Shown here piece by piece: positions 18,699 through 53,795 of a DNA stretch of 64,000 bases. Both the position numbers and the translations under genes were made by a program. Position 1 is the first letter of the stretch. Every line of letters begins with the position of its first letter. Below the pieces are notes generated by a model. That model did not search any database and was not told the origin of the DNA. It was given only the letters and a program-made list of their open reading frames with translations. Source of the stretch: Escherichia coli (GTDB lineage Bacteria > Pseudomonadota > Gammaproteobacteria > Enterobacterales > Enterobacteriaceae); the NCBI RefSeq assembly GCF_050920415.1, contig NZ_CP169309.1. One strand, written 5' to 3'.

Positions 18699-18785
18699 GC
18701 CCGGATGGTGGAATCGGTAGACACAAGGGATTTAAAATCCCTCGGCGTTCGCGCTGTGCGGGTTCAAGTCCCGCTCCGGGTACCA
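18699..18785 (+). tRNA. leuZ: tRNA-Leu (TAA)
   Basis: 87 nt GCCCGGATGGTGGAATCGG...GGGTACCA, anticodon TAA; 3' two thirds lie in the prophage att repeat. Confidence 0.95.
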
Positions 18786-18855
18786 TGGGAAAGATAAGAA
18801 TAAAATCAAAGCAATAAGCAGTGTCGTGAAACCACCTTCGGGTGGTTTTTTTGTA
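18731..18855. repeat. attL: 125-bp direct repeat (3' 55 nt of tRNA-Leu plus the tRNA-operon terminator)
   Basis: Identical to 53671..53795. Confidence 0.9.
18829..18853 (+). terminator. glyW-cysT-leuZ operon terminator
   Basis: Hairpin ACCACC-TTCG-GGTGGT followed by TTTTTTT; duplicated at 53769..53793 inside attR. Confidence 0.7.
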
Positions 18856-19092: not shown

Positions 19093-19325
19093 AATCTGAC
19101 AACATCCTGAGAAAAAGACAAATTCGTTAGATTTACTGTCTTTCTGCTGCCTCGAATGCTGATGTCTGCAGCACTGATAATAACTCTATCTCTTTGATAT
19201 AGATCTTTTTTTTGATGAATTGCACGGCATATTATCGTGATGGCACCTTCTTGTTAAAGGTGTTGTACTCCTCATCTCGATTTTATGATGTGGGCTATGA
19301 TTGGTTAGTAATAGAGTGTATCGGT

Positions 19326-19607
19326 ATGCGATGTGGTTTATTAATGGCAATCTGCCTTTGTTTGGTATCTTTTAGTGGGTATGCAGCAACAGGAAAGTCA
19401 GATGCTCAGATCAAGAAAGAAATAATTAAAGAGTCCATTGAATCTTATCCAGGCAATTGTGCGTGTCCGTATAATCATGCAAGGAATGGTAGTAGATGTG
19501 GTGGACGCAGTGCATATAGCCGTACTGGAGGGTATGACGTGGTATGTTATGAAAGTGATGTTACCGATGAAATGATCCGGCAATGGAAGCAGGAGAATGC
19601 TGAGTAA
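19326..19607 (+). CDS. Small Cys-rich secreted protein (prophage moron, function unknown)
   Basis: Signal-peptide-like N-terminus MRCGLLMAICLCLVSFSGYAA, then a Cys-rich mature region; low-GC islet; start uncertain (ORF track begins 19212). Confidence 0.5.
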   Translation: MRCGLLMAICLCLVSFSGYAATGKSDAQIKKEIIKESIESYPGNCACPYNHARNGSRCGGRSAYSRTGGYDVVCYESDVTDEMIRQWKQENAE

Positions 19608-19717: not shown

Positions 19718-19993
19718 ATGCCTATGAGATAGGGTGCCTTATCGGCCTTACCCTGGCAACCGATTGACGGGGAGTTGCCTCCCCGTCGCGGTTTCCTTAC
19801 TGCTTACACTGTAAGAACGCCGCAAACTCCGCTCCCCAGAAGCTCATCCGTATTTCACACAGCGAACCGTGCAGCATCCAGATGATGAGGATTACCGTCA
19901 CGCAGAACGTGATGGCCGTAAGCGATTTTTGCGACATAGCGCTTGCTCCTTTGTTGGAGAGGCGCTAACCTATCACTTGCTAGGTTGACGGGT

Positions 19994-20105
19994 TAGGGCC
20001 TCGGTTAAACAGAAATGTTTTCCGGGGCCTTTCCACATCCGGCCTTCGGGTATTCCCTCCGACCATCAGCCGAAAGGCACCCGCACGTAATCTATCGCTT
20101 TTTTG
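19994..20105 (+). repeat. Diverged ~105-bp direct repeat, copy B
   Basis: Homologous to 18991..19092; lies immediately 3' of ogr. Confidence 0.6.
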
Positions 20106-20126
20106 TTACTCCGGCAATTCTGCCTG

Positions 20127-20387
20127 TTAATTCTGAGGTAAAGGCAAACTCATCTGATTGTTTCCCCTGTGTGAAGCTGGCAGCTCATGCCACGGGATAC
20201 CTTCTGAAGAGTGAACGCCGGAGGCGTGTTTTGATGTGAATTTATGGAAAGCTTCCAGTGTTGAGAAGCATACGCCGCATTCCAGATTGTTACACTGGTA
20301 ATACTTTTGCCGCACGGTGTTTGAATCATTTTCCGGACGACTGGTGCGGATACGGGCAGATGCGCCACAAAGCGGACAACGGAACAT
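20127..20387 (-). CDS. ogr: Ogr/Delta-type zinc-finger late-gene transcriptional activator
   Basis: MFRCPLCG...YYQCNNLECGVCF four-Cys arrangement typical of P2 Ogr; start may be downstream of the ORF-track start. Confidence 0.8.
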   Translation of the reverse strand: MFRCPLCGASARIRTSRPENDSNTVRQKYYQCNNLECGVCFSTLEAFHKFTSKHASGVHSSEGIPWHELPASHRGNNQMSLPLPQN

Positions 20388-20429
20388 AGCGACCTCCCTT
20401 AACGTGGTGCTGCCGCTATTCTAAGTTGC

Positions 20430-21539
20430 TCACTCTGTTTCCGCTATCCATTCCGGGATTTTTGCTTCAAGCTCAAGCTGCGTGGTAAAGCCGCTGTTAT
20501 CAATGGTGTGCTCGGCTTTTGCAATAATCCAGTCCTGATTGTCGATGTCACTTTTGAAGCCTGTCACCGTGCCATGCATTTCGGGATAGAGTTCTGCACG
20601 TCCACGCGCCAGCGTGATGGAGAATGATGCGGCTCCGCGTTGTAGTTGCTGCCACTTTGCCGCCGCTGCGCGTCTTGCTGCCTGCTCGTTCTGATAAGTC
20701 TTGCGTAACACAAACACATTGCCTTCCGCGCCTTCCATATAATCACCTTCACGGCTGCTGCTTTTCTCCTTTTTGGGTTTTGGCGGTTTACGGCGTTTTA
20801 CGCTGACTTTTTTCTTTTTCCCGTAATTAAGATCAAGCCAGTAGGCGCGTACCCCCGTATACGCCTCGCGGTCAGCAATACGGAACTGATGGCGATCGCC
20901 GCTGCTGCGTGTAATGGCGAACGAGGGCAACGGCTGGCCCTGTGCGTTCACGCCACCACCTGGCATGATGAATAACAGATTGCCGCTTTTTACCGTGGTG
21001 ATTGCGCCCAGCATTTCCGCCATGCGCGTAAGGAAGGACATGTCGCTTTCTTCGGTCTGGTCGGCGTGGTCGATTTCAATATCCATCAGCATTTCGCTGA
21101 TTTGCGGTTTCAGGCCGTATCGGTGAGCAATTGCAGACACCACGCGTTCAACGGTCACATCATGCCAGGATACTTCGCGCTTGACGTTAAATTCATCCCG
21201 AAAATCTGCGCTTCTGGCTGAAATGGTCAGTCTGTCGGGCGGTCCTTCATGAGCAATTTCATCAACAATGTAAGTGCCTTTTTCTGTCAGCGGTTCTCCT
21301 TTCCAGCCAATGAGAACCGTCAGGCGCGCGCCCCGTGGCGGTAGCTGCAACTGACCATCTGCATCATCCAGCGTGATGGTGAGCTGGTCCGCCTCAAATC
21401 CCCGGTTGTCGGTCAGTGACAGGCTCATCAGGCGCTCTGCCACGCCTGACAGCGTTTTACCCTCCGCGAGAATATCAAAATCCGGCATTTTCACGGGGTC
21501 TGTGCCCTGACTGAGCAATTGCATGGTGGTGTCGGTCAT
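20430..21539 (-). CDS. Tail protein gpD (late control gene D family)
   Basis: About 369 aa from MTDTTMQLLS; recalled gpD family features; ORF-track N-terminal extension to 21671 judged spurious. Confidence 0.8.
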   Translation of the reverse strand: MTDTTMQLLSQGTDPVKMPDFDILAEGKTLSGVAERLMSLSLTDNRGFEADQLTITLDDADGQLQLPPRGARLTVLIGWKGEPLTEKGTYIVDEIAHEGPPDRLTISARSADFRDEFNVKREVSWHDVTVERVVSAIAHRYGLKPQISEMLMDIEIDHADQTEESDMSFLTRMAEMLGAITTVKSGNLLFIMPGGGVNAQGQPLPSFAITRSSGDRHQFRIADREAYTGVRAYWLDLNYGKKKKVSVKRRKPPKPKKEKSSSREGDYMEGAEGNVFVLRKTYQNEQAARRAAAAKWQQLQRGAASFSITLARGRAELYPEMHGTVTGFKSDIDNQDWIIAKAEHTIDNSGFTTQLELEAKIPEWIAETE

Positions 21540-21696
21540 CTGTTCCCTCCCTGTGCGGCATGGTCGCATGTGCGTGCGGAGGGGGTTACTGCTTTTTGTT
21601 GTCGCCGTGGCGGGAGAACGGCGCAGGGGTGAGATTACGCGCGTGGTGGGTGATGATTGTTGCCGAATCATTTAACGGATACAAGGGGCTGAAGCT

Positions 21697-22881
21697 ATGA
21701 GTGAAACTCGTTTTCATGGTGCCCGTGTTACGGAAAATACCGACCTGGTAACAGCGATTAACGATGTTGATTCCAGCGTTATCGGTATCGTGGCAACGGC
21801 GGATGATGCGGACGCGGAGCTGTTCCCGCTGAACAAGCCCACATTGCTGACCCGCGTCAATGACGTGCTGGGAAAATGCGGAACAACGGGGACGCTTTAT
21901 CGTGCGCTTAAGGCCATCGCAGACCAGGTGAGCACAAAGGTGATCGTCGTTCGCGTGGCTGAACACAAAGAAGAAGACGGAAAAACGCAGGATCAACTGG
22001 TTATCGGTGGTTCTGAATCTGACGGCAGCTATACGGGGATGTATGCGCTGCTTGTTGCAGAGCAGGATGAAAGCATCGGATACCGTCCGCGTATTCTGGC
22101 CGCGCCGGAGCTGGACACGGAGGCGGTGACAAAATCCTTGTGCGTGATTGCGGGTAAACTGCGCGCGTTTGTGTATGCCACATGTCATGGTTGTAACACG
22201 ATGGCTGAGGCGATTACCTACCGCCAGAAATTCAACGAACGTGAGGTGATGCTCTTATGGCCTGACTTCATCGCCTACAACCCGAAAAGTGGCAAAAACG
22301 AAACGTTCCCCGCGCCTGCTTATGCGTGCGGCCTTCGTGCGTACATTGACCATGAGCAGGGCTGGCACAAATCGCTGTCCAACGTTCCGGTTAAAAATGT
22401 GCTGGGAATGTCCAGGCATGTGTTCTGGTCGTTGCAGGCCGAAGACAGTGATGCCAACAGCCTCAACAACAAAGAAATCACGACCATTATTCGTCGCAAC
22501 GGGTTCCGCTTCTGGGGCAACCGCACACCGGAAACGAACGCCTACATCTTTGAGGTGTATACCCGAACCGCACAGGTACTGGCTGATTCAATTGCGGAAG
22601 CGCAGTTTGAAACCATCGACAGTCCACTGACGCCTGCGAACGTGAAGGATGTTATCAGTGCCATCAGGGCAAAACTGGATTCACTGGTTACTGCCGGGAA
22701 ACTGATTGGCGCGTCGTGCTGGTATGACGTGGTGGATAACAGCACCACGGATTTACGTCAGGGGCGTGTGCGTATTCGCTACAAATATACGCCTGTTCCT
22801 CCGCTGGAAGATATGGAGCTTTACCAGACGTTTACTGATGAATACTTTGATCCCGCATTTGCGGTGTTGGGAGGTGTCTGA
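21697..22881 (+). CDS. Contractile tail sheath protein (P2 FI-like)
   Basis: 394 aa with recalled FI motifs (DADAELFPLNKP, KLRAF, QGWHKSLSNV, RRNGFRFWGNRT, YTRTAQV, YKYTPVPPLE). Confidence 0.9.
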   Translation: MSETRFHGARVTENTDLVTAINDVDSSVIGIVATADDADAELFPLNKPTLLTRVNDVLGKCGTTGTLYRALKAIADQVSTKVIVVRVAEHKEEDGKTQDQLVIGGSESDGSYTGMYALLVAEQDESIGYRPRILAAPELDTEAVTKSLCVIAGKLRAFVYATCHGCNTMAEAITYRQKFNEREVMLLWPDFIAYNPKSGKNETFPAPAYACGLRAYIDHEQGWHKSLSNVPVKNVLGMSRHVFWSLQAEDSDANSLNNKEITTIIRRNGFRFWGNRTPETNAYIFEVYTRTAQVLADSIAEAQFETIDSPLTPANVKDVISAIRAKLDSLVTAGKLIGASCWYDVVDNSTTDLRQGRVRIRYKYTPVPPLEDMELYQTFTDEYFDPAFAVLGGV

Positions 22882-23393
22882 TGGCTGTACCAAAACATCT
22901 TCGCTTTTTTACGCTGTTTGTGAATGGTGAAAACGAAGTGGGTAAGGTGACGTCCGTCACTCCACCTAAACTGACGCGCAAAACTGAAAGCTATCGTGGC
23001 GGTGGCATGATGGGGGCGGTGAGTATCGACCTCGGTCTTGATGATTCTGCGCTTGATGCGAGTTTTGTCATGGGGGGCGCAGTTCGTGAGCTGTTCCTTA
23101 AATATGGCGGCACGATTGACAGCACGTTGCTGCGTTTTGCGGGTGAATACTACACCGATGCAGAAAGTGATCTGTATGAAATCGAGATGCGCGGGCGTGT
23201 GACGGAAATTGATATGGGGGAAGCCAAACAGGGCGAAGCCACATCACACACTTACGCTGTCAAAAACACCTACTACAAGCTGAGCGTTAACGATCGTCCG
23301 CTGTGGGAAATCGACCTGCTGAACCACATCTACCGGAAGGACGGCAAGGACATCGTGCCTGATCGCATCCGTTCCGCGCTTGGGCTTGGCTGA
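22881..23393 (+). CDS. Tail tube protein (P2 FII-like)
   Basis: 170 aa ORF immediately after the sheath gene with overlapping stop/start. Confidence 0.85.
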   Translation: MAVPKHLRFFTLFVNGENEVGKVTSVTPPKLTRKTESYRGGGMMGAVSIDLGLDDSALDASFVMGGAVRELFLKYGGTIDSTLLRFAGEYYTDAESDLYEIEMRGRVTEIDMGEAKQGEATSHTYAVKNTYYKLSVNDRPLWEIDLLNHIYRKDGKDIVPDRIRSALGLG

Positions 23394-23449
23394 TAAGTAA
23401 TATGCAGGCGGCGCAGTGCGTCGCCTCTGACTGAAAAAGGAGACAACTG

Positions 23450-23824
23450 ATGCAAAACATCAATACTGAAACCCGGAATAACGCCGTGGCGGATGATGTG
23501 ACGGCAGGTGAGGATATGGCTGTCGAACGTGGCGTAAAACTGGCCCGACCAATTGAGCGCGGTGGCGAAAAAATCACGTATGTGGAAATTACCGGGGCTA
23601 TTGAGCAGGCTGGATCTCTGCGTGGTCTGTCGCTGTCTGATGTGCTGAATCTGAAAGCGGATACCATGTTCACGCTGTTGCCTCGCGTGACCTCGCCACG
23701 ACTGGATGAAGTGATGATTAAAAAAATGTCGTCACGCGATTTTATTCAGTTGTGCGCTGTGGCTGTAAATTTTATGAGCGAGCCAGACTCTGGCGCGAAG
23801 AGCGTGCAGGAGACGGCAGCGTAA
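23450..23824 (+). CDS. Tail assembly chaperone gpE-like
   Basis: Position between tube and tape measure; carries a slippery heptamer near its 3' end. Confidence 0.6.
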   Translation: MQNINTETRNNAVADDVTAGEDMAVERGVKLARPIERGGEKITYVEITGAIEQAGSLRGLSLSDVLNLKADTMFTLLPRVTSPRLDEVMIKKMSSRDFIQLCAVAVNFMSEPDSGAKSVQETAA

Positions 23825-23988
23825 TCACCCTGGTGTGCTTTGAGCACATCGAAGATCTGGTGGCGGATATTGCCGCCATTTTTAACTGGTCGCCCGCCGA
23901 AATCTTCATGATGACGCCCGGCGAAGTGGTTAGCTGGCGTGAGCGGGCGGCACTTCGCAGCGGGAATGCAGACAATGAAGACTCTTGA
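23752..23988 (+). CDS. E' extension frame of the gpE+E' frameshift fusion chaperone
   Basis: -1 frame ORF overlapping the gpE 3' end and the tape-measure 5' end; analogous to P2 E/E' and lambda G/GT. Confidence 0.55.
   Translation: MRCGCKFYERARLWREERAGDGSVITLVCFEHIEDLVADIAAIFNWSPAEIFMMTPGEVVSWRERAALRSGNADNEDS
23767..23773 (+). other. Programmed -1 ribosomal frameshift site (A_AAT_TTT)
   Basis: X_XXY_YYZ heptamer in the gpE zero frame; the -1 frame stays open to 23988 (E' extension). Confidence 0.6.
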
Positions 23989-26776
23989 TATCCGGGTCGC
24001 TTTCAGCGCCGTTGACAGACTGACCCGGCCTGCCGAAAACGCCCGCCGCCTGATGGGGCAGTTTGGTGACTCCATCCAGCGAACGCAGGGGGCGATCAAA
24101 AATCTCGAGCGTCAGGCGCGTTCATTTGAGCGCGCCCGTGACGCTGTCAGTAAAGCGGATGCGAGCATCGTGAAAGCACGACGCCAGCTTAACGCCCTTA
24201 ATCAGTTACAACGCACGGGTACAGTGCTCAGCGAAAAACAACAAAAGCTGATGCAGCAGTTAAGCACCCGGCTTGAACGCCTGAATGAATCGCGCACACG
24301 GGAAATTCAGAAAATGCGGGAGCTTGGCGGAGAGCTGAAACGCCACGGCATTTCCCTGACAGGCAGCGATAACACCATCCAGCAGGCCATCAGACGCACC
24401 GAACAGTACAACAACCAGCTTGAACGCGAACGGCAGACGCTTGCGCGTGTAACGCGGGCGCGTGAGCGGTATTCGCGCGCGCAGGAAACTGCTGGAAAAC
24501 TGAAAACAGGTGGTGCGCTGGCAATTGGTGCGGCAGCGGCTGGCGGCTATGCTGCCGGGCGTTTTTTGCAGCCTGCGATCGGGTTCGGGAAAGAGATGTC
24601 CCGCGTTCAGGCACTGACGCGAATCGACCAGAACAGCCCACAGTTTAAGGCGCTGCGTGAGCAGGCGTTAAAACTTGGCTCTGAAACGCAGTTCACCGCA
24701 GGCGATGCCGCCAGTGGACAGGCATTTCTTGCAATGGCTGGCTTCACACCGCAGGCCATTCAGGCTGCGCTTCCGGGCGTGCTGAGCATGGCAACGGCTG
24801 GCGGCATGGATCTCGGCGAGACGGCGGATATTGGCTCAAATATCCTGACGCAGTTCGGCCTTTCTGCTGACCAGATGGACCGGGTTGGTGACACACTCAC
24901 CGCAGCGTTTACCCGTACCAACACTGACCTTCGCGCACTGGGCGAAACCATGAAATATGCAGGTCCGGTGGCGGGTAAGCTGGGAATATCGCTGGAGCAG
25001 GCCGCAGCGATGGCGGGCGTGCTGGCGAATATGGGTATCAGAGGGAGTGATGCCGGGACGGCAATGCGTGCCAGCCTGGCTCGTCTGGCATCACCGCCAA
25101 AGGCAGCAGCAGAGGCGCTGAAAGAGCTTGGTGTGGCAGTTTCTGACGCGAACGGCAAAATGCGCCCGATGGAGGATGTGCTGGCCGACCTTTATAAAGC
25201 CACCCGCAAATACGGGGAAGTTGACCGGGTATCCTTCTTTAAGGACATCGCCGGGGAAGAGGCTTTCACATCATTTATGGCCCTCGTTGATGCAGCGGGT
25301 GACGGGTCCTTACCCAAACTGAGAAAAGAACTTGAAGGCGCGCGCGGTGAGGCTGAACGCACAGCAAAGGTTATGGCCAACAACCTTGACGGCGATCTGA
25401 AATCACTCGGCAGTGCATGGGAAGGGTTGCGCATCCGCATTGCAGATCTGATTGACGGTCCGCTGCGTTCTGTCACGCAGTGGCTCACGCGTGTGGTATC
25501 AAAGGTGACGGCGCTGGCGCAGGCCCATCCCGCACTGACGCGCCAGCTACTGATAGCAGGCGGTGCGTTGCTGGCAATGACTGCAACGGTTGGCTCGTTG
25601 TCGCTGGCTATTGGTGTGCTTGCTGGTCCGCTGGCAAAACTGCGTCTTGGTTTTTCCCTCCTGACCGGATCAATGAATGCTGTCAGGGTCCTGCCAGCAC
25701 TATGGGGAATGGTGACGGGTTCCGTTTCTTTGCTGGGAGGTGCTATCGGGGCGCTGTTCAGTCCGGTTGGTCTTATCGTGGCTGCGCTTGCCGGAGCTGC
25801 CATTCTTATCTGGAAATATTGGGATCCCATCAGGGCATTTTTTGCCGGGGTGTTCGGCGGGATTATGGAAAGGCTGACCCCGTTGCGCGAAACCTTTGAA
25901 CGGTTTGGCCCTGTTTTTGACGTAATCGGAAGCGGGATCAGCCAGGTGTTTAACTGGTTTAAATCGCTGCTGTCACCGATGGAGTCCAGCAAGGAAACGC
26001 TGGATAAATGTACCAGTGCTGGCGAGATATTCGGTAACGTTCTTGGCGGTGCGTTACAACTTGTTCTGACACCTGCAAAAATGTTGCTGGATACGCTGGC
26101 GTGGATACTTGAAAAGCTCGGTGTGCTTCCGGATGAAGCGGAAAGGGCGCGCAAGAAAATCGAAGACGCACAGCGTGCGGCCATTCTTCAGGACAAGGTT
26201 GCCTTGCTTCAGGGGGACCTGGCGAAAATCAATCCGCCGAAGCCTGTGGAAAATGGCACCGGAGGTGATAAACCCAAAGACAACAAACCGCTCACAGACA
26301 GCAATACCGGTACGCTACGCAGACTCAGCAAGATTGCTGATAACACAGGTAAGCTGGTTGATGAGACGAAAAAACGCATTGGCCCTGGCGATATTGTCTT
26401 TAAGAACCTGCCCCGCGCACTTGCTGTTCGTGGGGAGTGGCAGGAGCGGAAGATTGCGCAGGTCAGTAAGCCTGCTTCCGCAATCAACATCACACCTGTG
26501 GTCCCGACTCCTCTGCCTCCGGCGCTGGTCCCTGTTGTTGCGGCCAGCTCCCGCCCGGTGGCGGAGGCCATACGATCGCCAGTGGCATCAGTTCCTGCAA
26601 CTTCCCGTAACCGGGAGCCTGTTGTCTCCGGATTTGGCGGTGAAATTCATGTTCATCTGCATAACGTTGTTACGCAGAATCCCCGCGAACTGGCGAAACT
26701 GGTCGGTGAAATGGTCAGGGCAGAATTGGAACGACGCGACCGTGCCGGACGTGGCAGTTTTTACGATAAAGATTGA
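23939..26776 (+). CDS. Tail tape measure protein (gpT-like)
   Basis: 945 aa with coiled-coil-rich N-terminal part and Gly/Ala-rich hydrophobic segments; position. Confidence 0.9.
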   Translation: MSGRHFAAGMQTMKTLDIRVAFSAVDRLTRPAENARRLMGQFGDSIQRTQGAIKNLERQARSFERARDAVSKADASIVKARRQLNALNQLQRTGTVLSEKQQKLMQQLSTRLERLNESRTREIQKMRELGGELKRHGISLTGSDNTIQQAIRRTEQYNNQLERERQTLARVTRARERYSRAQETAGKLKTGGALAIGAAAAGGYAAGRFLQPAIGFGKEMSRVQALTRIDQNSPQFKALREQALKLGSETQFTAGDAASGQAFLAMAGFTPQAIQAALPGVLSMATAGGMDLGETADIGSNILTQFGLSADQMDRVGDTLTAAFTRTNTDLRALGETMKYAGPVAGKLGISLEQAAAMAGVLANMGIRGSDAGTAMRASLARLASPPKAAAEALKELGVAVSDANGKMRPMEDVLADLYKATRKYGEVDRVSFFKDIAGEEAFTSFMALVDAAGDGSLPKLRKELEGARGEAERTAKVMANNLDGDLKSLGSAWEGLRIRIADLIDGPLRSVTQWLTRVVSKVTALAQAHPALTRQLLIAGGALLAMTATVGSLSLAIGVLAGPLAKLRLGFSLLTGSMNAVRVLPALWGMVTGSVSLLGGAIGALFSPVGLIVAALAGAAILIWKYWDPIRAFFAGVFGGIMERLTPLRETFERFGPVFDVIGSGISQVFNWFKSLLSPMESSKETLDKCTSAGEIFGNVLGGALQLVLTPAKMLLDTLAWILEKLGVLPDEAERARKKIEDAQRAAILQDKVALLQGDLAKINPPKPVENGTGGDKPKDNKPLTDSNTGTLRRLSKIADNTGKLVDETKKRIGPGDIVFKNLPRALAVRGEWQERKIAQVSKPASAINITPVVPTPLPPALVPVVAASSRPVAEAIRSPVASVPATSRNREPVVSGFGGEIHVHLHNVVTQNPRELAKLVGEMVRAELERRDRAGRGSFYDKD

Positions 26777-26782
26777 GGAGTC

Positions 26783-27277
26783 ATGGCCATGATGATGATC
26801 TACGGCATGTTTGTTTTTGAGCTGCGCACATTGCCGCATCAGCAGTTACAGCAAAACAAAAGCTGGCGGCATGTGAAAAATGAACGCGTTAACCGTTCAG
26901 CAAGCTGGCAGTATATCGGGGCAGGCGATGATCGCATCGTTCTTTCTGGTGTGCTTTATCCTGAAATTACAGGTGGCGAAGTATCGCTTTCGTTGCTGAC
27001 CACGCAGGCATATACAGGACGCCCCTGGCCTCTGATTGATGGTGTCGGGCAGATTTACGGCATGTATGTCCTGACCGGAACGAATACGACCCGCTCCGAG
27101 TTTGATCGCTACGGTAAGGCGAAAAAGATAGAATTTTCACTGACCCTTGAACGCTGTGATGAGGATTTGCGGGAGCGCCTGCAATCCTCATCGTTCAGCG
27201 ATATGCTGTCCGGCTTCAAAGATAAGGTCACATCATCCCTTAACAGCGCGGCCAGCTCCGTTAAAGGGCTGTTTTGA
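26783..27277 (+). CDS. Tail protein gpU-like
   Basis: 164 aa ORF directly after the tape measure. Confidence 0.75.
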   Translation: MAMMMIYGMFVFELRTLPHQQLQQNKSWRHVKNERVNRSASWQYIGAGDDRIVLSGVLYPEITGGEVSLSLLTTQAYTGRPWPLIDGVGQIYGMYVLTGTNTTRSEFDRYGKAKKIEFSLTLERCDEDLRERLQSSSFSDMLSGFKDKVTSSLNSAASSVKGLF

Positions 27278-27284
27278 TTAACGC

Positions 27285-27314
27285 AAAACCGCTAATGGTC
27301 AGATTAGCGGTTTT
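27285..27314. terminator. Bidirectional hairpin terminator between gpU and the invertase
   Basis: Perfect 11-bp stem AAACCGCTAAT/ATTAGCGGTTT with 6-nt loop, between convergent genes. Confidence 0.6.
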
Positions 27315-27903
27315 CATTTTCCTGAGTCTGCCTGGTTGTTTCTTCAGCCTGTATATCGCCTACAGGGTGATAACGATAAATCGTCGATATGCCGATGTCG
27401 TAAATGATCGCCAGTTGTTTCCTGTCATGACCGTTTTTAATCAGCCTCGCTATTTGCTCGTGTTGTTCTTTTGTCAACTTCGGGCGACGTCCGCCAATGC
27501 GCCCCCGTGCGCGCGCTGCCGCCAGCCCGGCCAGTGTACGCTCTACAATTAATTCACGTTCCATTTCGGCTAAAGCCCCCATGACGTGAAAAAAGAAACG
27601 CCCCATGGGTGTTGATGTGTCAATGCTGTCCGTCAGACTACGGAAATTAACACCTTTTTCCCGCAATTCCTCAATAAGCGTGATCAGGTGTTTCATACTT
27701 CTGCCCAGTCTGTCCAGCTTCCAGACAACCAGCGTATCTCCTTCTGATAGCGTTCTGATCAGTTTTTTCAATCCCGGTCTGGCTGATTTCGTTCCGCTGA
27801 TTTTATCTTCAAAAATCAGTTCACATCCTGCGCACTCCAGCGCGTTACGCTGCAATTCTGTATTCTGGTCATTTGTTGATACGCGGACATAGCCAATAAG
27901 CAT
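27304..27903 (-). CDS. Serine-recombinase DNA invertase (Pin/Gin/Cin/Hin family)
   Basis: 199 aa starting MLIGYVRVSTNDQNTELQ; catalytic Ser in the VRVS motif; C-terminal HTH; closely resembles e14 Pin as recalled. Confidence 0.95.
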   Translation of the reverse strand: MLIGYVRVSTNDQNTELQRNALECAGCELIFEDKISGTKSARPGLKKLIRTLSEGDTLVVWKLDRLGRSMKHLITLIEELREKGVNFRSLTDSIDTSTPMGRFFFHVMGALAEMERELIVERTLAGLAAARARGRIGGRRPKLTKEQHEQIARLIKNGHDRKQLAIIYDIGISTIYRYHPVGDIQAEETTRQTQENENR

Positions 27904-27958
27904 GATGGATCCCCTGAATAAAAACCGGGGATGATGCCAGTTAGCCGTAATCTCTGCA

Positions 27959-27984
27959 TTTTCTTAAACGTTGGTTTGGGAGAA
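27959..27984. repeat. Invertase crossover site (gix/hix-like), right-hand copy
   Basis: TTTTCTTAAACG-TT-GGTTTGGGAGAA; the 14-mer 27971..27984 is the inverted repeat of 29777..29790; encodes VGLGE. Confidence 0.6.
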
Positions 27985-28440
27985 GGTGCTCCAGCTATTG
28001 GCGTTCCGTTCTTCTGGCCGTCCGCCGCAATGCCAGATACCGTAATCGAAAGCTGGTCCGGCATGGTGTTTTTGAAGTTCAACGGCGCGAAATTCTCTGC
28101 CACTGATTACCCTGTGCTGGCGAAAGTGTTTCCTTCGCTGGTATTACCTGAAGCCCGCGGTGATTTCATTCGTATCTGGGATGATGGCCGTGGTGTTGAT
28201 AGTGGCCGTGCGTTACTTTCCGCGCAATCAGACGATTTCAAAACGCACGAGCATAAAATTTTAGGGCTAAATGGAAGTGGCAGTAATGTAGTGTTTGGCA
28301 CCGTTTCGAATGCTTCTCCATTATATACCAGCGGCGTTAGTCAGCCGGGTGGAAGTGCTTTGCCCGCTTTTCAAAACCCAGGCGGTACTGAAACGCGTCC
28401 CCGTAACATCGCATTCAACTTTTTAGTAAGGGCTAAATAA
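27985..28440 (+). CDS. Silent alternative tail-fiber C-terminal cassette (Sv'-like)
   Basis: Open frame continuing from the crossover site with no credible own start; would fuse to the fiber constant region after inversion. Confidence 0.55.
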   Translation, partial: GAPAIGVPFFWPSAAMPDTVIESWSGMVFLKFNGAKFSATDYPVLAKVFPSLVLPEARGDFIRIWDDGRGVDSGRALLSAQSDDFKTHEHKILGLNGSGSNVVFGTVSNASPLYTSGVSQPGGSALPAFQNPGGTETRPRNIAFNFLVRAK

Positions 28441-29033
28441 TGAAACCTGTTTTTGATGAAAATGGACTGGCTACAGTGCCGGGTGATATGCGTTGTTTTT
28501 ATTATGATGCAGTAACGTATGAATATACGGGCTGGTCTGATGAATATATTAATACTGGTATAAGTATGCCCGCCTGTTCCACTGGTATTGACCCTGGCGA
28601 AAACATTCCGGGAAAAGTGGCTGTATTTACAGGTAAGGGATGGAGCCATGAAGAGGACCATCGCAATGAGACTGTTTACTCAATCGAAAATGGCGCAGCT
28701 GTTACAGTGGATTATATCGGTGCCATCAAAAACGGTTATGTCACGCTTTCACCGTTAACGCCATATGATAAATGGGATGGTGAGAAATGGGTGACAGATA
28801 CTGAGGCACAACACGGTGCCGCAGTAGAAGCGGCAGAAGCACAGCGTCAGCCACTGATTGATGCTGCAATGGCTTCCATCAGTCTGATTCAGCTGAAATT
28901 ACAGGCCGGGCGGAAGCTGACGCAGGCAGAAACCACCCGGCTTAACGCCGTGCTTGATTACATTGACGCGGTGACGGCAACAGATACGAGCACCGCTCCG
29001 GATGTCATCTGGCCTGAACTGCCGGAGGCGTAG
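28440..29033 (+). CDS. Tail fiber assembly protein, alternative copy (U'/tfa')
   Basis: 197 aa with C-terminal motif TSTAPDVIWPELP shared with the convergent tfa gene. Confidence 0.8.
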   Translation: MKPVFDENGLATVPGDMRCFYYDAVTYEYTGWSDEYINTGISMPACSTGIDPGENIPGKVAVFTGKGWSHEEDHRNETVYSIENGAAVTVDYIGAIKNGYVTLSPLTPYDKWDGEKWVTDTEAQHGAAVEAAEAQRQPLIDAAMASISLIQLKLQAGRKLTQAETTRLNAVLDYIDAVTATDTSTAPDVIWPELPEA

Positions 29034-29439
29034 GCCATTCAATATCTGGAGCACTGGAGGTATCAACCAGTTCCAGTGCGTCCAGATAATCCAGCCACAA
29101 ATTATATTGCGCCAGTTCCTCACCTTTCAGACGACCAATAGCCGCTTTACCAGGCCATTGCTTGGTATTCATATATTCGTTGGACTGATTAATCAATTGC
29201 TGTTTTTTCAATTCGGCTGCGGCAATCTGTTCCTCATGTGTTGGTGGTGGAATTTCAGACCATGCAGGAAAACCATTTTCCTCAGCGATACGGATTTTTC
29301 CTTTCGGCGGTAATCCGGAAAACTCAATATACACCTGCTCATCAACTTCAACAGCATCATCTGGCCATGAATTTACATTGATGTAGTCATCCTTAAGCGC
29401 AGGATTCACAAAAATATTTAAAGATGGACTAAAAAACAC
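29005..29439 (-). CDS. Tail fiber assembly protein (gpG/Tfa-like)
   Basis: 144 aa directly downstream of the fiber gene; 3' end overlaps the alternative copy convergently. Confidence 0.8.
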   Translation of the reverse strand: MFFSPSLNIFVNPALKDDYINVNSWPDDAVEVDEQVYIEFSGLPPKGKIRIAEENGFPAWSEIPPPTHEEQIAAAELKKQQLINQSNEYMNTKQWPGKAAIGRLKGEELAQYNLWLDYLDALELVDTSSAPDIEWPTPPAVQAR

Positions 29440-29440
29440 A

Positions 29441-30922
29441 TCACCCTCCTATAGCAACATAACAGCCCGATACAGGATTTGCGGCAGTCGCTACGCTGGA
29501 AAAACCACGAAAGCCGCTTTTTGTGATTGCGGAGGCAGATAGTATTCCGGCACCCGAAGGTGTATGCCCCACGTGGCTGGCAACCATCACGTAGCACGCC
29601 GACGGAAAAGCGAAAGGGAAATTGTTTAAATATCCCGCATCATCCCCCAGACTTCCCCCAAACTGCCCCACTCCCCACTGGATAATAAGTGGTCTCCGAA
29701 CGCCAGAAATAATTAATGGAATTGCTACATACCCATTCACCAACATAGCGCCGGTTGTTGCGCCAGCCAGAGCCAATTCCCCCAAACCAAGGTAATCAAG
29801 AACTCCCTGAGTGCTGGTTTTACCAAGAATGGCACGTCCAACACTTGTCAACGCGGTTAACGCGGCACGATCTGCCCCTGTAAAATATGGGAGTTTATCT
29901 GCTGATGTAGCAAGCTCCGCCAGCGCCGTCAGGGTGGCATCCTTCGGTTGCTTACCCGCAAGCGCGTTAGTCATGGTGGTCGCAAAATTCGGGTCATTGC
30001 CCAGCGCCGCAGCCAGTTCGTTCAGCGTGTTCAGTGCATCAGGTGACGAATCTACAAGTGCGGCAATCGCGGCCATAACGAAAGCCGTGCTTGCGATCTG
30101 GGTACTATTAGTCCCCTGTGGCGCTGTTGGTGTTGTTGGCGTTCCGGTCAGTGCCGGGCTGTTTAATGGTGCTTTCTTGCTCGTTTCATCCATTACCGCC
30201 TTAACAGCTTTTGGTGTCGCTGCCAGCGTTTCAGACGTGCTGTTCGTGGCGCTACTGAGCTGAACAATCCCTTTTTGTGTAGTGGTGGCGTTCTGGGCGG
30301 TATATTTCCCGTTAGCCAGGTCATATGCAGCCTTAACCGCTTTCGGTGTTGCGGCCAGTGTTTCTGATTCACTGTTAATTGCACTGCTTAACTGAGTAAA
30401 ACCTTTTACGGTCAGCGAGGCGTCCGGGTGACGTCGTGACTGTTCGTGCTCTGATATTTTATCATCCACATATTTGCGGGTTGCCAGAACCACAGACGGG
30501 TCGATTTTCAGCGTGATGGCTTCGGTGTTCGTGACAACCAGAATCATGCGGATAGTCTGGGTGCGTCCACTGCCTTCCTGCAACTGCGGTTTGTACGTTT
30601 CCGGGCAGTTTGCCACCGCAATGAGTACACCTTCATCATCATAAAGCCCAATCTCACGGATCCAGAATCCTCCCTCGTTTTCAGGGATGATTTGCTCCGC
30701 AATAATCTGGCTCTGATTGTTAGGGTCAACACTCAGAAGATTCAGCGGTGCAATGCGTTTCTGGTTAATCAGTTTTGTTTGTGCAGGGTCTGGTGTTGGT
30801 AACACACCATTTGCATCACCAACGGCCATTTGCGTCAGATTCAGCTTACTGCCGAGCATCGTCGCGTTAGCCAGTCGTGCCGCGCCCTGATTAGTCAGAA
30901 TGGCGTAGTATTTCACTGTCAT
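29441..30922 (-). CDS. Tail fiber protein (gpH-like), currently expressed variant
   Basis: 493 aa with conserved N-terminal region and repeat-rich shaft; C-terminal ~110 aa lie inside the invertible segment. Confidence 0.85.
   Translation of the reverse strand: MTVKYYAILTNQGAARLANATMLGSKLNLTQMAVGDANGVLPTPDPAQTKLINQKRIAPLNLLSVDPNNQSQIIAEQIIPENEGGFWIREIGLYDDEGVLIAVANCPETYKPQLQEGSGRTQTIRMILVVTNTEAITLKIDPSVVLATRKYVDDKISEHEQSRRHPDASLTVKGFTQLSSAINSESETLAATPKAVKAAYDLANGKYTAQNATTTQKGIVQLSSATNSTSETLAATPKAVKAVMDETSKKAPLNSPALTGTPTTPTAPQGTNSTQIASTAFVMAAIAALVDSSPDALNTLNELAAALGNDPNFATTMTNALAGKQPKDATLTALAELATSADKLPYFTGADRAALTALTSVGRAILGKTSTQGVLDYLGLGELALAGATTGAMLVNGYVAIPLIISGVRRPLIIQWGVGQFGGSLGDDAGYLNNFPFAFPSACYVMVASHVGHTPSGAGILSASAITKSGFRGFSSVATAANPVSGCYVAIGG
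29777..29802. repeat. Invertase crossover site (gix/hix-like), left-hand copy
   Basis: TTCCCCCAAACC-AA-GGTAATCAAGAA inside the fiber gene; encodes LGLGE on the minus strand. Confidence 0.6.
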
Positions 30923-32419: not shown

Positions 32420-32770
32420 TTACTCCCTCAGCGTGATGGTTAATTCAACATTCTGCATGGTCTGCATGACAGTGCCCGACAGCGTCACCCCGGCGCGGCC
32501 TCCCGCTTTCCAGACAACGTCGATGGCATCCAGGGCAATGCGGGGTTCCCATCGTGTCAGCGCAATCACGGCAGCACTCATGCATTGCAGACGCGTGGTG
32601 TTATTCATGGGTTCGTCAATCAAATCAGGCACAAGGCTGCCATATTCCCGTCGCATAACCCGGCTTGCCAGCGGGGTGGTCAGGATGTCCCTGGCTGACT
32701 GTTTCAGGTGCTCCATATCGTTCAGGTTTCCCGTTCCGTCCGGGTTCATTCCTGTGTAGCGGGTTGTCAC
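32420..32770 (-). CDS. Baseplate wedge protein gpW-like
   Basis: 116 aa, position and size. Confidence 0.8.
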   Translation of the reverse strand: MTTRYTGMNPDGTGNLNDMEHLKQSARDILTTPLASRVMRREYGSLVPDLIDEPMNNTTRLQCMSAAVIALTRWEPRIALDAIDVVWKAGGRAGVTLSGTVMQTMQNVELTITLRE

Positions 32771-33348
32771 TGCGGGCCTCCTGTCGAATCGCTGCCACCT
32801 TTCACGCCACCGTGTTTATGCGTATGCACGGTAATGCCGTTTGAGGTGAAATTGCCGCCGCTGTGCGTGATATTGCCGCTCATCTTTCCCCCTTTTGTGA
32901 CGTCAAGCGTCGCCGTTCTCAGAAGGTCTGTGCATTCCACGACGGGCGTGTCCAGTGTCACGCTGACGGATGCCTGTAAAGTGGCCGTTTTCATGCCGCT
33001 GGCGCTCAGTGCGCCTGCGTCCGCGTCGTAGCGGAACACCGCGCCGTCCGGCGCGCTGATCACGATTTCTTTCAGGCTTTTGCCGGGGGCCGGATTGGCA
33101 TCACTCCACAGGCTGCCAATTATCATGGCGGTTTCCGGGTTGCCGCCAATGCAGGCAATTACCACCTGTTCGCCTGGTGATGGCGGCAGCCACACATTGA
33201 AGGCTCCCGCGCGCGTGGTGTTCCAGCGCAGCCAGCCTGTTTCCAGTTCGCCGCTGCGAACGCGCACGCGCCAGGACTTCTCATCAACTTCAGAGATGAT
33301 CCCGGTGCGGATGATATTGCTCAGCAGTCGCATGAGTTCTGCGCTCAC
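32767..33348 (-). CDS. Baseplate spike/assembly protein gpV-like
   Basis: 193 aa, position upstream of gpW. Confidence 0.8.
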   Translation of the reverse strand: MSAELMRLLSNIIRTGIISEVDEKSWRVRVRSGELETGWLRWNTTRAGAFNVWLPPSPGEQVVIACIGGNPETAMIIGSLWSDANPAPGKSLKEIVISAPDGAVFRYDADAGALSASGMKTATLQASVSVTLDTPVVECTDLLRTATLDVTKGGKMSGNITHSGGNFTSNGITVHTHKHGGVKGGSDSTGGPQ

Positions 33349-33989
33349 CGTACAGCCTCCGCAATCCGGCCCAGCACCGTGTTATAAATCAGGCGTTCAT
33401 CTGCCTGACTGATGCCCAACAGCTCACGTACCGGGTAATCGGTGAAAATGCCCGGCGCAACCTGATCGCGCTCACCGAACTGATGAACGCGTGCAATACG
33501 TGCGGCCACGCCGCTGTAACCCACCGTCACACCGGAAGCATCTGCACGGGCTTTCAGGTAGCGGGCGGTGCGCAGTTTTACGAACATGGGGACGCGCTTT
33601 GTGCTGTCCTGGTTGATGCGCCGGGTGCGTATTTCCAGAAAGCGGTCGATGTCATCCCGGTAAAACGTGCGGATGCTGTTTTTATCCTCATCCCACCCGG
33701 TGATGGTTCGCCCGTATTTCCCCGTGTCGTGATGCCAGTTTTTCAGCGTGCGTGCTTCGTTATTCCAGATAAAGCGAATGCGCTCCTGTATCCTGGTTAC
33801 GCGGCGTCTGCGTGGTGTCCATGCAGTCCCGTCCGGCGCTTTCTGTGACCGGATACGTGCCTGCTGGGCGCGACGTAAATCCTGTGCCAGCTTTCTGGCG
33901 ATGTTATTGATGGCCTGCTGATTCAGGCTGTCGCGGATAGCCTCAAAGGTTTCATCCACGCGGGTGAATGCCTTATCCATCGCTTTCAC
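33345..33989 (-). CDS. Virion morphogenesis / tail completion protein (gpS position)
   Basis: 214 aa, position between gpR and gpV; longer than I recall for P2 gpS. Confidence 0.6.
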   Translation of the reverse strand: MKAMDKAFTRVDETFEAIRDSLNQQAINNIARKLAQDLRRAQQARIRSQKAPDGTAWTPRRRRVTRIQERIRFIWNNEARTLKNWHHDTGKYGRTITGWDEDKNSIRTFYRDDIDRFLEIRTRRINQDSTKRVPMFVKLRTARYLKARADASGVTVGYSGVAARIARVHQFGERDQVAPGIFTDYPVRELLGISQADERLIYNTVLGRIAEAVR

Positions 33990-38414: not shown

Positions 38415-39284
38415 TCAGAAGTCAGCCAGCTGGTCGGAGGCTGCGCCCGTTGCGGTGAACCGGTTCTGCGGATCGCCGTCCTGCGTGCGCAGTTTTTCCT
38501 TCAGTGCTGCCAGCTCTGTGGTCAGTGAAGTGATTTTCTGGCTGTCCTGCTGATGGCGGGTTTCCAGTGCATTAAAACGGTCGATAATGTCGGCCTGTGA
38601 CGTTGCGACGCCTTCCACCGCTTCCTGAATGCGGGAGAAACTGGCGTCATCCGCTTTGCGGCCACGGCCAATAATCCCCATTACGCGGTTAAACCACTGG
38701 GTGCCTTCTTCCTGGCGTTGTTCTGCCATTTCGATGATTTCAGACTCGATGGCTTCGGAGATAAGCGGTGCTTCACCCTGGACACTGTTGAACGTCATCA
38801 CCGCCTGACGTTGCTGTGCCGTGAATTTCAGGCGCTCAGTGCCCAGGCTTGCCGGGGTGTCGGTCATCGCCAGCCCGACCAGATAGGCGCGCCCGTTAAC
38901 GGAGAACTGCGGGTGCAGTTCGATACTGGAATAGATTTTCTTGCCGTCAGCGACAAGCTGCTTCATGCGCTCGGTCGGTTCGATTTCTGCATACAGCGCA
39001 GTACGTCCGGCCAGCGGGCCTTCCGTAATATCTTCCGTACTCAGCGCGGTGACATCGCCCATTGCGGAAAATTCGCTTGACGGGCATGGCGAGAGATAGT
39101 GCTCAACGTTCACGCGGGCAGCGTAAACATCCGGGTTGAAGTTCTCGGCGGCTTCACGCAGATGTACCGGACTGATTTCGCGGCCATCAACAGTTGATCC
39201 GGAGACAGCCACGCGAAACTTTTTGCGGGATGTCTTTTTTTCATTAGCCATAGTTTTTGCCCCTCTGACTGGTTCTTCAGTCAT
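38415..39284 (-). CDS. Capsid scaffolding protein gpO-like
   Basis: 289 aa, position upstream of capsid gene. Confidence 0.85.
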   Translation of the reverse strand: MTEEPVRGAKTMANEKKTSRKKFRVAVSGSTVDGREISPVHLREAAENFNPDVYAARVNVEHYLSPCPSSEFSAMGDVTALSTEDITEGPLAGRTALYAEIEPTERMKQLVADGKKIYSSIELHPQFSVNGRAYLVGLAMTDTPASLGTERLKFTAQQRQAVMTFNSVQGEAPLISEAIESEIIEMAEQRQEEGTQWFNRVMGIIGRGRKADDASFSRIQEAVEGVATSQADIIDRFNALETRHQQDSQKITSLTTELAALKEKLRTQDGDPQNRFTATGAASDQLADF

Positions 39285-39405
39285 GATGGCAAAGCGTAAC
39301 AGGCTGATACAAAGGGCTTTTGTTGTAAGAAAACGGCCAGAACAGGGGGTTAAGGAGAACGGTTTCGCGCGCGGGTAATCTTCCTGTAATTACTCAGGGG
39401 GAGCA

Positions 39406-53670: not shown

Positions 53671-53795
53671 TTTAAAATCCCTCGGCGTTCGCGCTGTGCG
53701 GGTTCAAGTCCCGCTCCGGGTACCATGGGAAAGATAAGAATAAAATCAAAGCAATAAGCAGTGTCGTGAAACCACCTTCGGGTGGTTTTTTTGTA
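53671..53795. repeat. attR: 125-bp direct repeat (partial tRNA-Leu 3' end plus terminator)
   Basis: Identical to 18731..18855. Confidence 0.9.

Follow-up and report, generated by a model that had tools for sequence, protein, structure and literature searches.

The window (the whole stretch of 64,000 nucleotides analysed here) contains a leuZ-integrated prophage at approximately 18856-53795. The 3' half of the tRNA-Leu(taa) gene is contained in a direct repeat of 125 bp (18731-18855 and 53671-53795), which confirms integration at leuZ. Gene identities were assigned by using PHROGs and NCBIfam profiles, and ogr was assigned from its translation and Pfam. The features around the tail module are as follows.

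20127..20387, minus strand: ogr, late-gene activator (86 amino acids; Pfam Ogr_Delta PF04606, E = 8e-14)
20430..21539, minus strand: gpD, tail/baseplate hub of the late control D family (369 amino acids; phrog_52, E = 1e-166)
21540..21696: D/FI spacer of 157 bp, with D and FI divergent
21697..22881, plus strand: FI, tail sheath (phrog_23, E = 1.5e-126; 46% identical to P2 FI)
22881..23393, plus strand: FII, tail tube (TIGR01611, 116.9 bits against a cut-off of 102.75)
23450..23824, plus strand: E, tail assembly chaperone (phrog_103)
to 23988, plus strand: E', the -1 frame extension of E (-1 frame open to 23988)
23939..26776, plus strand: T, tape measure protein (TIGR01760, E = 1e-87)
26783..27277, plus strand: U, tail protein (phrog_76, E = 8e-75)
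27285..27314: terminator-like hairpin with a 12-bp stem (AAAACCGCTAAT/ATTAGCGGTTTT) that folds on both strands
27304..27903, minus strand: serine DNA invertase (phrog_125, E = 5e-99), adjoining the inverted module but outside it
27969..29792: invertible tail-fibre segment with crossover-like sites CGTTGGTTTGGGAGAA and CCTTGGTTTGGGGGAA and tail-fibre/assembly ORFs within

The order of the FI, FII, E, T, U and D homologues is that of the contractile-tail module of Peduoviridae (P2-like) phages, as judged by PHROG and NCBIfam matches and by tblastn onto P2 (33-49% identity). The start of D at 21539 follows a Shine-Dalgarno sequence, GGGAGGG, and is backed by alignment to D proteins of four other genera and of P2; the 369-amino-acid frame is unbroken in relatives. 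Within E, a candidate slippery heptamer (A_AAT_TTT, 23767-23773) lies in the correct phase for a predicted -1 frameshift into E', and in relatives the matching place carries a GpE family protein in the RefSeq annotation. The ogr gene lies 42 nucleotides downstream of D on the same strand, encodes a zinc finger of the form CX2CX24CX4C and is 98-100% identical in P88, PhiSM and E. coli prophages. An overlapping 72-amino-acid ORF (20150-20368) was also considered as ogr, and was rejected on the basis of translation and Pfam in favor of the frame at 20127-20387. An Rfam scan of the 18-30 kb region returned three tRNAs and nothing else.

FI, FII, E/E', T and U (21697-27277) are on the plus strand, and D-ogr (21539-20127) and the genes from O through H are on the minus strand. 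When proteins of the window were mapped onto P2, the genes J, I, FI, FII, E, T, U, D and ogr were all found on one strand of that phage, and the FI-U block is therefore inverted relative to P2. Within the prophage, FI-U is the only part that is flipped. ORF strands and P2 mapping thus agree with the original prediction that the sheath-to-gpU module is inverted with respect to both P2 and the remaining late region. That prediction also held that D diverges from FI, which is correct, across 156 bp, which is not: the spacer measures 157 bp. At the other end of the module, U converges with the invertase across a bidirectional hairpin, as had been described. This structure has predicted folding energies of -15.7 and -16.9 kcal/mol on the two strands, is common to both genes and includes the stop codon of the invertase.

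P2 (Peduovirus) carries the same genes in the same internal order in its F operon (FI-FII-E/E'-T-U-D, then ogr), with 33-49% amino acid identity. P2 and the window also share the adjacency of D and ogr, an Ogr-type activator and a dyad of the TGT-N12-ACA type upstream of FI, and the offset from dyad to hexamer at P2 pF is within 1 bp of that in the window. In P2, however, the U and D genes overlap, and the whole set forms a single operon that runs in one direction from pF. The window does not keep the P2 synteny, in which FI-U adjoins D-ogr and the head, lysis and baseplate operons and shares their direction. In the window, FI-U is flipped, D diverges from FI, and a separate promoter is needed for D.

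By ICTV convention, a phage belongs to a genus when it has approximately 70% or more nucleotide similarity, calculated as coverage times identity, to the type phage. P88 matches the window prophage with 79.0% coverage and 95.4% identity, which gives 75% similarity, and the value for PhiSM is 72%. The Xuanwuvirus architecture, including the inverted FI-U block and the adjoining invertase, is also present, and the window prophage is a typical Xuanwuvirus (P88-like) member. P88 is an inducible phage, and plaque formation has been reported for both P88 and PhiSM (PMC5285337, PMC6456863).

P88 and other Xuanwuvirus phages (P884B11, the Citrobacter phage Shae_phiSM, 520873, 500465-2, 503458, PhiR44_2 and Chuche) are identical to the window in the order and strands of ogr-D, FI-FII-E-T-U and the invertase. 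The region from ogr-D across FI through U and the invertase forms a single collinear megablast block (92-96% identity) in P88, P884B11, Shae_phiSM, 520873 and 500465-2; the match runs from ogr through U only in PhiR44_2 and Chuche, and from within D through the invertase in 503458. These phages differ from the window prophage in the content of the tail-fibre and invertible segment, in the cargo of the immunity and early regions, and in the cargo at the attachment ends. The integration site also varies: the window prophage is at leuZ, and relatives are also found elsewhere, for example beside ihfA in strain M1/5.

The same inverted module and divergent D/FI spacer are found in four further ICTV genera, represented by Novemvirus phiT5282H, Reipivirus ST16-OXA48phi5.4, Reginaelenavirus 3LV2017 and Senquatrovirus SEN4, and in Serratia phage KSP20, whose record shows the D/FI junction and inverted FI-T and stops in T. 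Their D proteins are 64-78% identical to that of the window. Unlike the window prophage, these phages have no invertase, and carry other cargo or none between U and the tail-fibre genes. Many deposited, ICTV-classified phage genomes already show the inverted layout. Our literature search found no paper that explicitly discusses the FI-U inversion, and the P88 paper is silent on orientation.

The D/FI junction is intact (at least 95% identity) in 1355 of the 5426 complete E. coli genomes, and the junction of U with the invertase is found in 619. The layout, carried by roughly one in four complete E. coli genomes, is of little weight as a discovery. These counts also bear on whether the 5.7-kb block was flipped by a contig-joining or scaffolding error, which the original prediction had listed among its explanations. 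Nothing beyond the departure from P2 order speaks for such an error. The D/FI junction is unbroken in 1355 complete genomes, which excludes an assembly artefact, and the layout recurs in 43 species-level genomes and in phages whose genomes were sequenced independently. We regard the chance of an artefact as negligible.

The serine invertase abutting the U end of the block raises a different possibility, namely that the tail module is a large invertible segment that is, or was recently, flipped by this Pin/Gin-type enzyme. However, the only crossover-like sites are at 27969-27984 and 29777-29792, around the tail-fibre segment, and none bracket the junctions near 21.6 and 27.3 kb, in keeping with the earlier statement that the junctions lack crossover-like inverted repeats. 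A search for a third crossover site yielded one extra match, a three-mismatch sequence in FII that is within chance expectation. Nor were other inverted repeats found to bracket the module: the nearest pair (I17, 21398-21416 and 27914-27932; 19 nucleotides, 79% complementarity), located inside D and upstream of the invertase, is at chance level.

Moreover, the orientation is fixed in every relative examined. Among the 1379 E. coli genomes with any match, 1355 span the same D/FI junction and the remainder are partial matches, and orientation is identical in all 49 inverted genomes and loci of the analysis, which comprise the window, the phage records and the loci of the scan; both orientations among near-identical genomes were not found in either set. 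The module is inverted without an invertase in Novemvirus, Reipivirus, Reginaelenavirus, Senquatrovirus and an O111 prophage (L003). Among 43 inverted loci, a close invertase homologue lies beside U in only six, and a seventh has only a 36% match. Conversely, two standard-order loci (L147 and L159) carry an invertase upstream of FI. Site-specific inversion by the neighboring enzyme, as the original prediction had wondered, is thus exceedingly improbable, and the tail-fibre invertase is unrelated to the orientation of the module.

Phylogenetic depth was assessed by an alignment-based scan with one genome per species. All 43 loci whose D protein is at least 61% identical to that of the window have the inverted layout, and all 37 loci with D at most 54% identical have the P2 order. 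The outgroups Burkholderia KS5 and Mannheimia 1152AP have the standard order. In neighbor-joining trees, the split between inverted and standard loci was recovered in 200 of 200 bootstraps for D, FI and U and in 168 of 200 for FII. The unanimous support for D, FI and U indicates one ancient inversion. A search of viral contigs with D as query gave 80 loci at 99-100% identity, a number that reflects abundance and not phylogenetic depth.

Rearrangements of late-module gene order do occur elsewhere in P2-like phages, for example in Smp131 (PMC3931495), and separate lineages might have inverted the block recurrently with no single event. Yet the arrangement matches the sequence clade perfectly, at 200/200 bootstraps for the three genes, and the architecture of the spacer is homologous and alignable throughout the clade, which makes recurrent inversion very unlikely. 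Two explanations offered by the original prediction, a lineage-specific arrangement and an ancient inversion, both hold and are really one reading, the former descending from the latter: the inverted set forms one clade, and the arrangement is native in all close and moderately distant relatives, P88 and PhiSM included. Close relatives with the same native orientation and an established D promoter had been set beforehand as a means of refutation; close relatives do natively share the orientation, and the D promoter is a prediction. The departure from P2 synteny is a characteristic of the clade, not an anomaly, and in these prophages it should not be flagged as misassembly or invertase activity. 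It also provides a clean marker that distinguishes a large enterobacterial P2-like clade from the P2, 186 and Fels-2 types. No breakpoint footprints of the original inversion are left.

The D/FI spacer has the following predicted elements.

21600..21617: dyad TGT-N12-AGA, a putative Ogr-binding site (centre 21608.5)
21560..21565, minus strand: predicted P_D -10-like hexamer, GACCAT, with TGn before it and its start 43.5 bp from the dyad centre
21652..21657, plus strand: predicted P_F -10-like hexamer, GATGAT, with its start 43.5 bp from the dyad centre

The dyad lies within TTGTTGT-N12-AGAAC (21596-21619), which occurs only twice in the window, in the D/FI spacer and in the O/P spacer (39320-39343); the motif was first spotted in the window itself, so this count is no independent test. 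The consensus dyad of Ogr/Delta late promoters is TGT-N12-ACA (PMC3931495), from which the right half-site in the window, AGA, has one mismatch. Relatives have either TGT-N12-ACA or TGT-N12-AGA at the aligned position, and the prophage itself encodes a cognate zinc-finger activator of the Ogr/Delta type. From the hexamers, transcription is predicted to start near 21553 leftward (P_D) and near 21664 rightward (P_F).

This geometry is conserved. Among 49 distinct spacers from about 40 species, in which blocks and spacing are conserved, the dyad is accompanied on the FI side by nAnnAT at +43.5 in 42; of these 42, 31 carry nAnnAT on the D side as well, at exactly -43.5. The spacers are phylogenetically related, and the counts therefore overstate independent support. 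Seven Novemvirus-type spacers have GATCCT, a weaker -10, on the D side. Standard-order relatives have the hexamer at the same offset on the FI side only, and none beyond the P_F dyad.

The predicted geometry corresponds to the design of the P2 pP/pO promoter pair, whose dyad centre (3071.5) falls exactly midway between the annotated starts of pP and pO, 3016 and 3127. In both P2 pP/pO and the D/FI spacer, one central dyad is flanked by -10-like hexamers about 43.5 bp to each side and by starts about 55.5 bp to each side, about 110 bp apart; the P2 starts are annotated from experiment, whereas those of the window are predicted. The two pairs differ in their targets: P2 pP/pO drive the terminase/portal and head operons, and the window pair would drive D-ogr and the tail operon. 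Within the window, the O/P spacer carries the same TTGTTGT-N12-AGAAC element. On the basis of these sequence features, we infer that the D/FI spacer is a mirror-symmetric bidirectional late promoter, active in both directions in an Ogr-dependent manner, so that D-ogr would have a late transcript of its own.

Alternatively, the inversion could be ancient and native, but D-ogr might be served by an independent constitutive or early promoter that does not share the P_F dyad, with the conserved D-side block serving otherwise. With a generic sigma-70 scan, the spacer yielded no promoter and hits in the region were not above chance; a blank result is nevertheless expected for promoters that depend on an activator and have no -35 element. 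The predicted P_D leader is very short (12-14 nucleotides), and the conserved block CAYGCGCGCGCG has no assigned function. In contrast, D is a structural late protein transcribed from pF in P2, most spacers have a -10-like hexamer mirror-placed at exactly -43.5, standard-order relatives lack one there, and the spacing agrees with P2 pP/pO. We therefore consider an independent D promoter unlikely, though it is the most serious competitor among those weighed. A hairpin that might sequester the Shine-Dalgarno sequence in the D leader was unconvincing (z = -1.8) and lies mostly upstream of the predicted start.

Overall, we are confident that a single ancient inversion of FI-U with its late promoter was inherited by the window prophage, and the spacer now probably serves as a bidirectional late promoter. 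The analysis establishes the layout, its distribution, its single origin and the conserved geometry of the spacer, whereas promoter activities, transcription starts and dependence on Ogr are predicted. FI-FII-E/E'-T-U and the late promoter underwent one inversion in the distant ancestor of a large clade of Enterobacterales P2-like phages, to which Xuanwuvirus/P88, Novemvirus, Reipivirus, Reginaelenavirus, Senquatrovirus and KSP20 belong. The event cut D-ogr off from the F operon and, at the same time, left the putative Ogr-binding site of P_F, with its dyad symmetry, some 70 bp away from the start of D. That single site (centre 21608.5) could then activate P_F rightward, for transcription of FI to U ending at the hairpin at 27285-27314, and P_D leftward, for D and then ogr, each predicted start being about 55 bp from the dyad centre, as in the pP/pO design of P2.

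We also somewhat favor a broader proposal, that a second bidirectional late promoter dependent on Ogr arose when the inversion put the palindromic P_F site to new use, and that inversion and promoter together are a shared derived character of an unnamed subfamily-level clade of Peduoviridae comprising at least five ICTV genera. If so, D and ogr would have a short late transcript to themselves and would no longer be expressed at the end of an operon of 6.6 kb, an arrangement that would form a tight positive-feedback loop for Ogr. The conserved mirror-symmetric spacer gives a concrete prediction for the expression of D and ogr after their separation from the F operon. It is also an example of how an operon fragment can gain regulation following an inversion when the activator site is palindromic.

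"Moron position 2" of P2 has its counterpart in the convergent gap that separates U from the tail-fibre genes, filled here by the tail-fibre invertase. The segment at 27969-29792 resembles Din-family segments (Mu G/Gin, P1 C/Cin and e14 P/Pin) in having a serine invertase, inverted crossover-like sites, alternative tail-fibre C-termini and assembly genes. This system acts on the tail-fibre segment alone, and the FI-U block is outside its sites.

In the tail module of this P2-like prophage, the genes FI to U run opposite to D and ogr, which encode gpD, a late control D family protein, and the late-gene activator.

20127-20387, minus strand: ogr, 86-aa ATG ORF (CX2CX24CX4C motif; Pfam Ogr_Delta, E=8e-14)
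20430-21539, minus strand: D (phrog_52 in PHROGs)
21540-21696: D/FI spacer, 157 bp
21697-22881, plus strand: FI, sheath (phrog_23)
22881-23393, plus strand: FII, tube (TIGR01611 in NCBIfam)
23450-23824, plus strand: E (phrog_103)
23939-26776, plus strand: T, tape measure (TIGR01760)
26783-27277, plus strand: U (phrog_76)
27285-27314: hairpin between U and the invertase, 12-bp stem, foldable on both strands, including the invertase stop codon
27304-27903, minus strand: DNA invertase, 199-aa ORF (phrog_125)

Beyond the invertase, the ORF map places the tail-fibre, baseplate, lysis and head genes through O on the minus strand. The full P2 annotation has FI-FII-E/E'-T-U-D-ogr on the same strand as O to G, and every window protein mapped on P2 by tblastn falls on that single strand. 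Therefore, the FI-U block is inverted relative to P2, and within the prophage the flip is limited to this block, as originally noted. D is indeed divergent from FI, and U convergent with the invertase over a bidirectional hairpin; the spacer, previously given as 156 bp, measures 157 bp, because D starts at 21539, preceded by the Shine-Dalgarno sequence GGGAGGG. A 72-aa ORF overlapping ogr was rejected in favor of the 86-aa ORF on the basis of the motif and the Pfam match. A terminator-like hairpin with a T-run (23858-23878, plus strand), within the E' region immediately 5' of T, may be an attenuator inside the tail operon.

Such a layout could be an assembly artefact, but this explanation is excluded: of 5426 complete E. 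coli genomes, 1355 carry an intact D|FI junction (query 21100-22200; coverage at least 80%, identity almost always 95% or more). For the U|invertase junction the figure is 619, and in many other genomes the match ends at the end of U. Among the latter is an O111 prophage in which a serine O-acetyltransferase gene separates U from the tail-fibre assembly gene; its block is still inverted. In two RefSeq E. coli prophages (L003, 2626-3426; L172, 5834-6631), the PGAP entry for D is a 266-aa "VgrG/Pvc8 family" protein accompanied by a spurious pseudogene; the full 369-aa frame is intact there and 98-99% identical to the window D. The start site seems to be systematically mis-annotated, which masks the compact D|FI spacer.

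The prophage is a member of Xuanwuvirus (P88-like), and its architecture is standard for that lineage. When 20000-29500 was compared with GenBank phages by megablast, collinear single matches of 92-96% identity covered ogr-D|FI...U|invertase in P88, P884B11, Citrobacter phage Shae_phiSM, 520873 and 500465-2; matches to PhiR44_2 and Chuche cover only ogr through U, and that to 503458 runs from inside D through the invertase. P88 covers 79% of the whole 34.9-kb prophage at 95.4% identity, and nucleotide-level alignment to P2 only 4%. P88 and PhiSM are annotated with the same strands as the window, so close relatives natively show this orientation. Because P88 is inducible and lytic-capable (PMC5285337) and PhiSM is temperate, spontaneously released and plaque-forming (PMC6456863), the layout is functional. 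P2 has the same tail module and the same regulator; the window differs by one flipped operon fragment. No paper discussing the inversion was found in the literature searched, yet numerous annotated genomes in public databases display it openly. What remains novel is the inversion's use as a clade marker and a predicted bidirectional promoter serving D-ogr (P_D) and FI-U (P_F).

The inversion extends well beyond this group. A sensitive blastn search with the junction found divergent D|FI at ~70% identity in phiT5282H, ST16-OXA48phi5.4, KSP20 and others.

Phages annotated with the inverted layout and without the invertase
Enterobacter phage phiT5282H (Novemvirus)
Klebsiella phage ST16-OXA48phi5.4 (Reipivirus)
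Serratia phage KSP20 (D|FI junction with FI-T; the record ends in T)
Klebsiella phage 3LV2017 (Reginaelenavirus)
Salmonella phage SEN4 (Senquatrovirus)

We aligned D proteins, and then mapped window proteins on 80 loci kept from a scan of one genome per bacterial species. In all 43 loci with D identity to the window D of 61% or more (one of them a remnant with only U left), FI to U lie opposite the D strand; P2 order holds in all 37 loci where D identity is 54% or less. Inverted loci occur in Citrobacter, Trabulsiella, Edwardsiella, Serratia, Enterobacter, Pantoea, Erwinia, Kosakonia, Brenneria, Klebsiella, Raoultella, Yokenella, Providencia, Hafnia, Photorhabdus, Xenorhabdus, Yersinia, Morganella and others. 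In neighbor-joining trees, D, FI and U each recover the inverted/standard bipartition in 200/200 bootstraps, and FII does so in 168/200. The more distant P2-like Burkholderia KS5 and Mannheimia 1152AP have P2 order; since these outgroups fall on the standard side, the inverted genomes are a single clade. One ancient inversion, inherited by every inverted genome, would be the simplest history, in agreement with the proposal of an ancient, lineage-specific arrangement. In the Providencia rettgeri RB151 remnant (L132), U is on the opposite strand ~1.3 kb from D, and FI to T were apparently deleted.

The D|FI spacer has a conserved, promoter-like architecture. Among 38 distinct aligned spacers, four blocks and their spacing are conserved, and the intervening sequence has diverged.

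Block 1: D start and Shine-Dalgarno sequence
Block 2: CAYGCGCGCGCG, alternating GC, at 21558-21580 in the window and aligned positions in relatives' loci L092-L131, between the dyad and the D-side hexamer; cross-genus
Block 3: TTGTTGT-N12-A(C/G)AAC, containing the dyad
Block 4: GAtTAT-type hexamer ~35 nt upstream of the FI start
21652-21657, plus strand: FI-side hexamer (predicted P_F), GATGAT
21565-21560, minus strand: D-side hexamer (predicted P_D), GACCAT

The window dyad, a putative Ogr-binding site (TGT-N12-AGA), lies at 21600-21617 (center 21608.5), and the extended motif (TTGTTGT-N12-AGAAC) occurs just twice in 64 kb, here and in the O|P spacer (39320-39343). Further spacers, not anchorable on the FI start codon, brought the total used for counts to 49. 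On the FI side, 42 of these 49 distinct, but related and hence non-independent, sequences have an nAnnAT hexamer whose start lies exactly 43.5 bp from the dyad center; 31 of the 42 have a second, oppositely oriented nAnnAT at exactly 43.5 bp on the D side, often preceded by TGn. Spacers without an exact D-side hexamer mostly have GATCCT or a 1-bp shift. As a control, standard-order relatives carry the dyad and CACCAT or GAACAT at +43.5 upstream of FI, with no comparable hexamer on the far side of the dyad.

P2 late promoters have a TGT-N12-ACA dyad and require Ogr (PMC3931495). Since D is the last gene of the P2 pF operon and the inversion cuts this link, D-ogr needs its own promoter. In P2, pP and pO share one activator site, whose dyad center (3071.5) is the exact midpoint of the annotated starts 3016 and 3127, and thus each start is 55.5 bp from the center. 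Applied to the window, this rule predicts starts at ~21553 (P_D) and ~21664 (P_F). Most likely, a single Ogr site would drive both promoters, as for pP/pO; the FI-U transcript would terminate at the hairpin at 27285-27314, and the late D-ogr transcript would be short. This model is weakened by the AGA half-site in the window, by the predicted D leader of only 12-14 nt and by the relatedness of the spacers compared.

The O|P spacer has a similar CGCGCGCG run between its dyad and the P-side hexamer. In this region (39252-39405), the predicted pO start would fall within the longest O ORF (start 39284); P88 O is annotated as starting 33 nt further downstream (equivalent to 39251), a better fit to the dyad geometry. 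S and V (33345-33989 and 32767-33348) overlap with zero gap; in P2, the two are separated by orf30, a terminator and pV. A separate pV may be lacking in this lineage, with a single long operon running from pO through the head, lysis, baseplate and fibre genes.

Given its adjacency, the invertase had been suspected of involvement in the module's orientation. However, the sole crossover-typical inverted repeat in the window pairs 27968-27996 with 29765-29793, a pattern search found the crossover core only at 27969-27984 and 29777-29792, and these sites flank alternative tail-fibre C-termini and assembly genes. Moreover, a close homologue lies beside U in just 6 of 43 inverted loci (a seventh has only a 36% match), and two standard-order loci have an invertase upstream of FI. 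These observations argue against such involvement; the invertase is accordingly a switch of tail fibres. It fills the variable slot between tail-fibre genes and sheath operon called "moron position 2" in P2-like phages (PMC3573123), which in the inverted clade lies between G and U, not G and FI. The D-ogr gap appears to be another variable slot of the inverted clade. In some relatives it holds cargo: a PIN-domain protein in L003 (898-2400) and, on the opposite strand, a 384-aa hypothetical protein in L172 (4549-5703). The distance of ~2.4 kb between ogr and the D start in Providencia loci L117, L130 and L132 points to an insertion in these as well.

The prophage is bounded by an exact 125-bp direct repeat (att; 18731-18855 and 53671-53795) spanning the 3' half of tRNA-Leu(taa) (leuZ), in a Gly-Cys-Leu tRNA cluster, and the downstream terminator. 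Of the 5426 complete E. coli genomes, 594 share this leuZ junction. The integrase gene (52563-53564) is at the prophage end distant from the intact tRNA. Near attL, directly downstream of ogr, is a 46-aa Hok/Gef-type toxin ORF (19797-19937, minus strand), which carries a Hok/Gef annotation in P88 and in RefSeq E. coli genomes; no Sok-like RNA was found by Rfam at the gathering threshold. Between attL and this ORF, a low-GC cargo ORF (19212-19607, plus strand; hypothetical in RefSeq relatives) appears to specify a small protein that is rich in cysteine and has a signal-peptide-like segment, MRCGLLMAICLCLVSFSGYAA...
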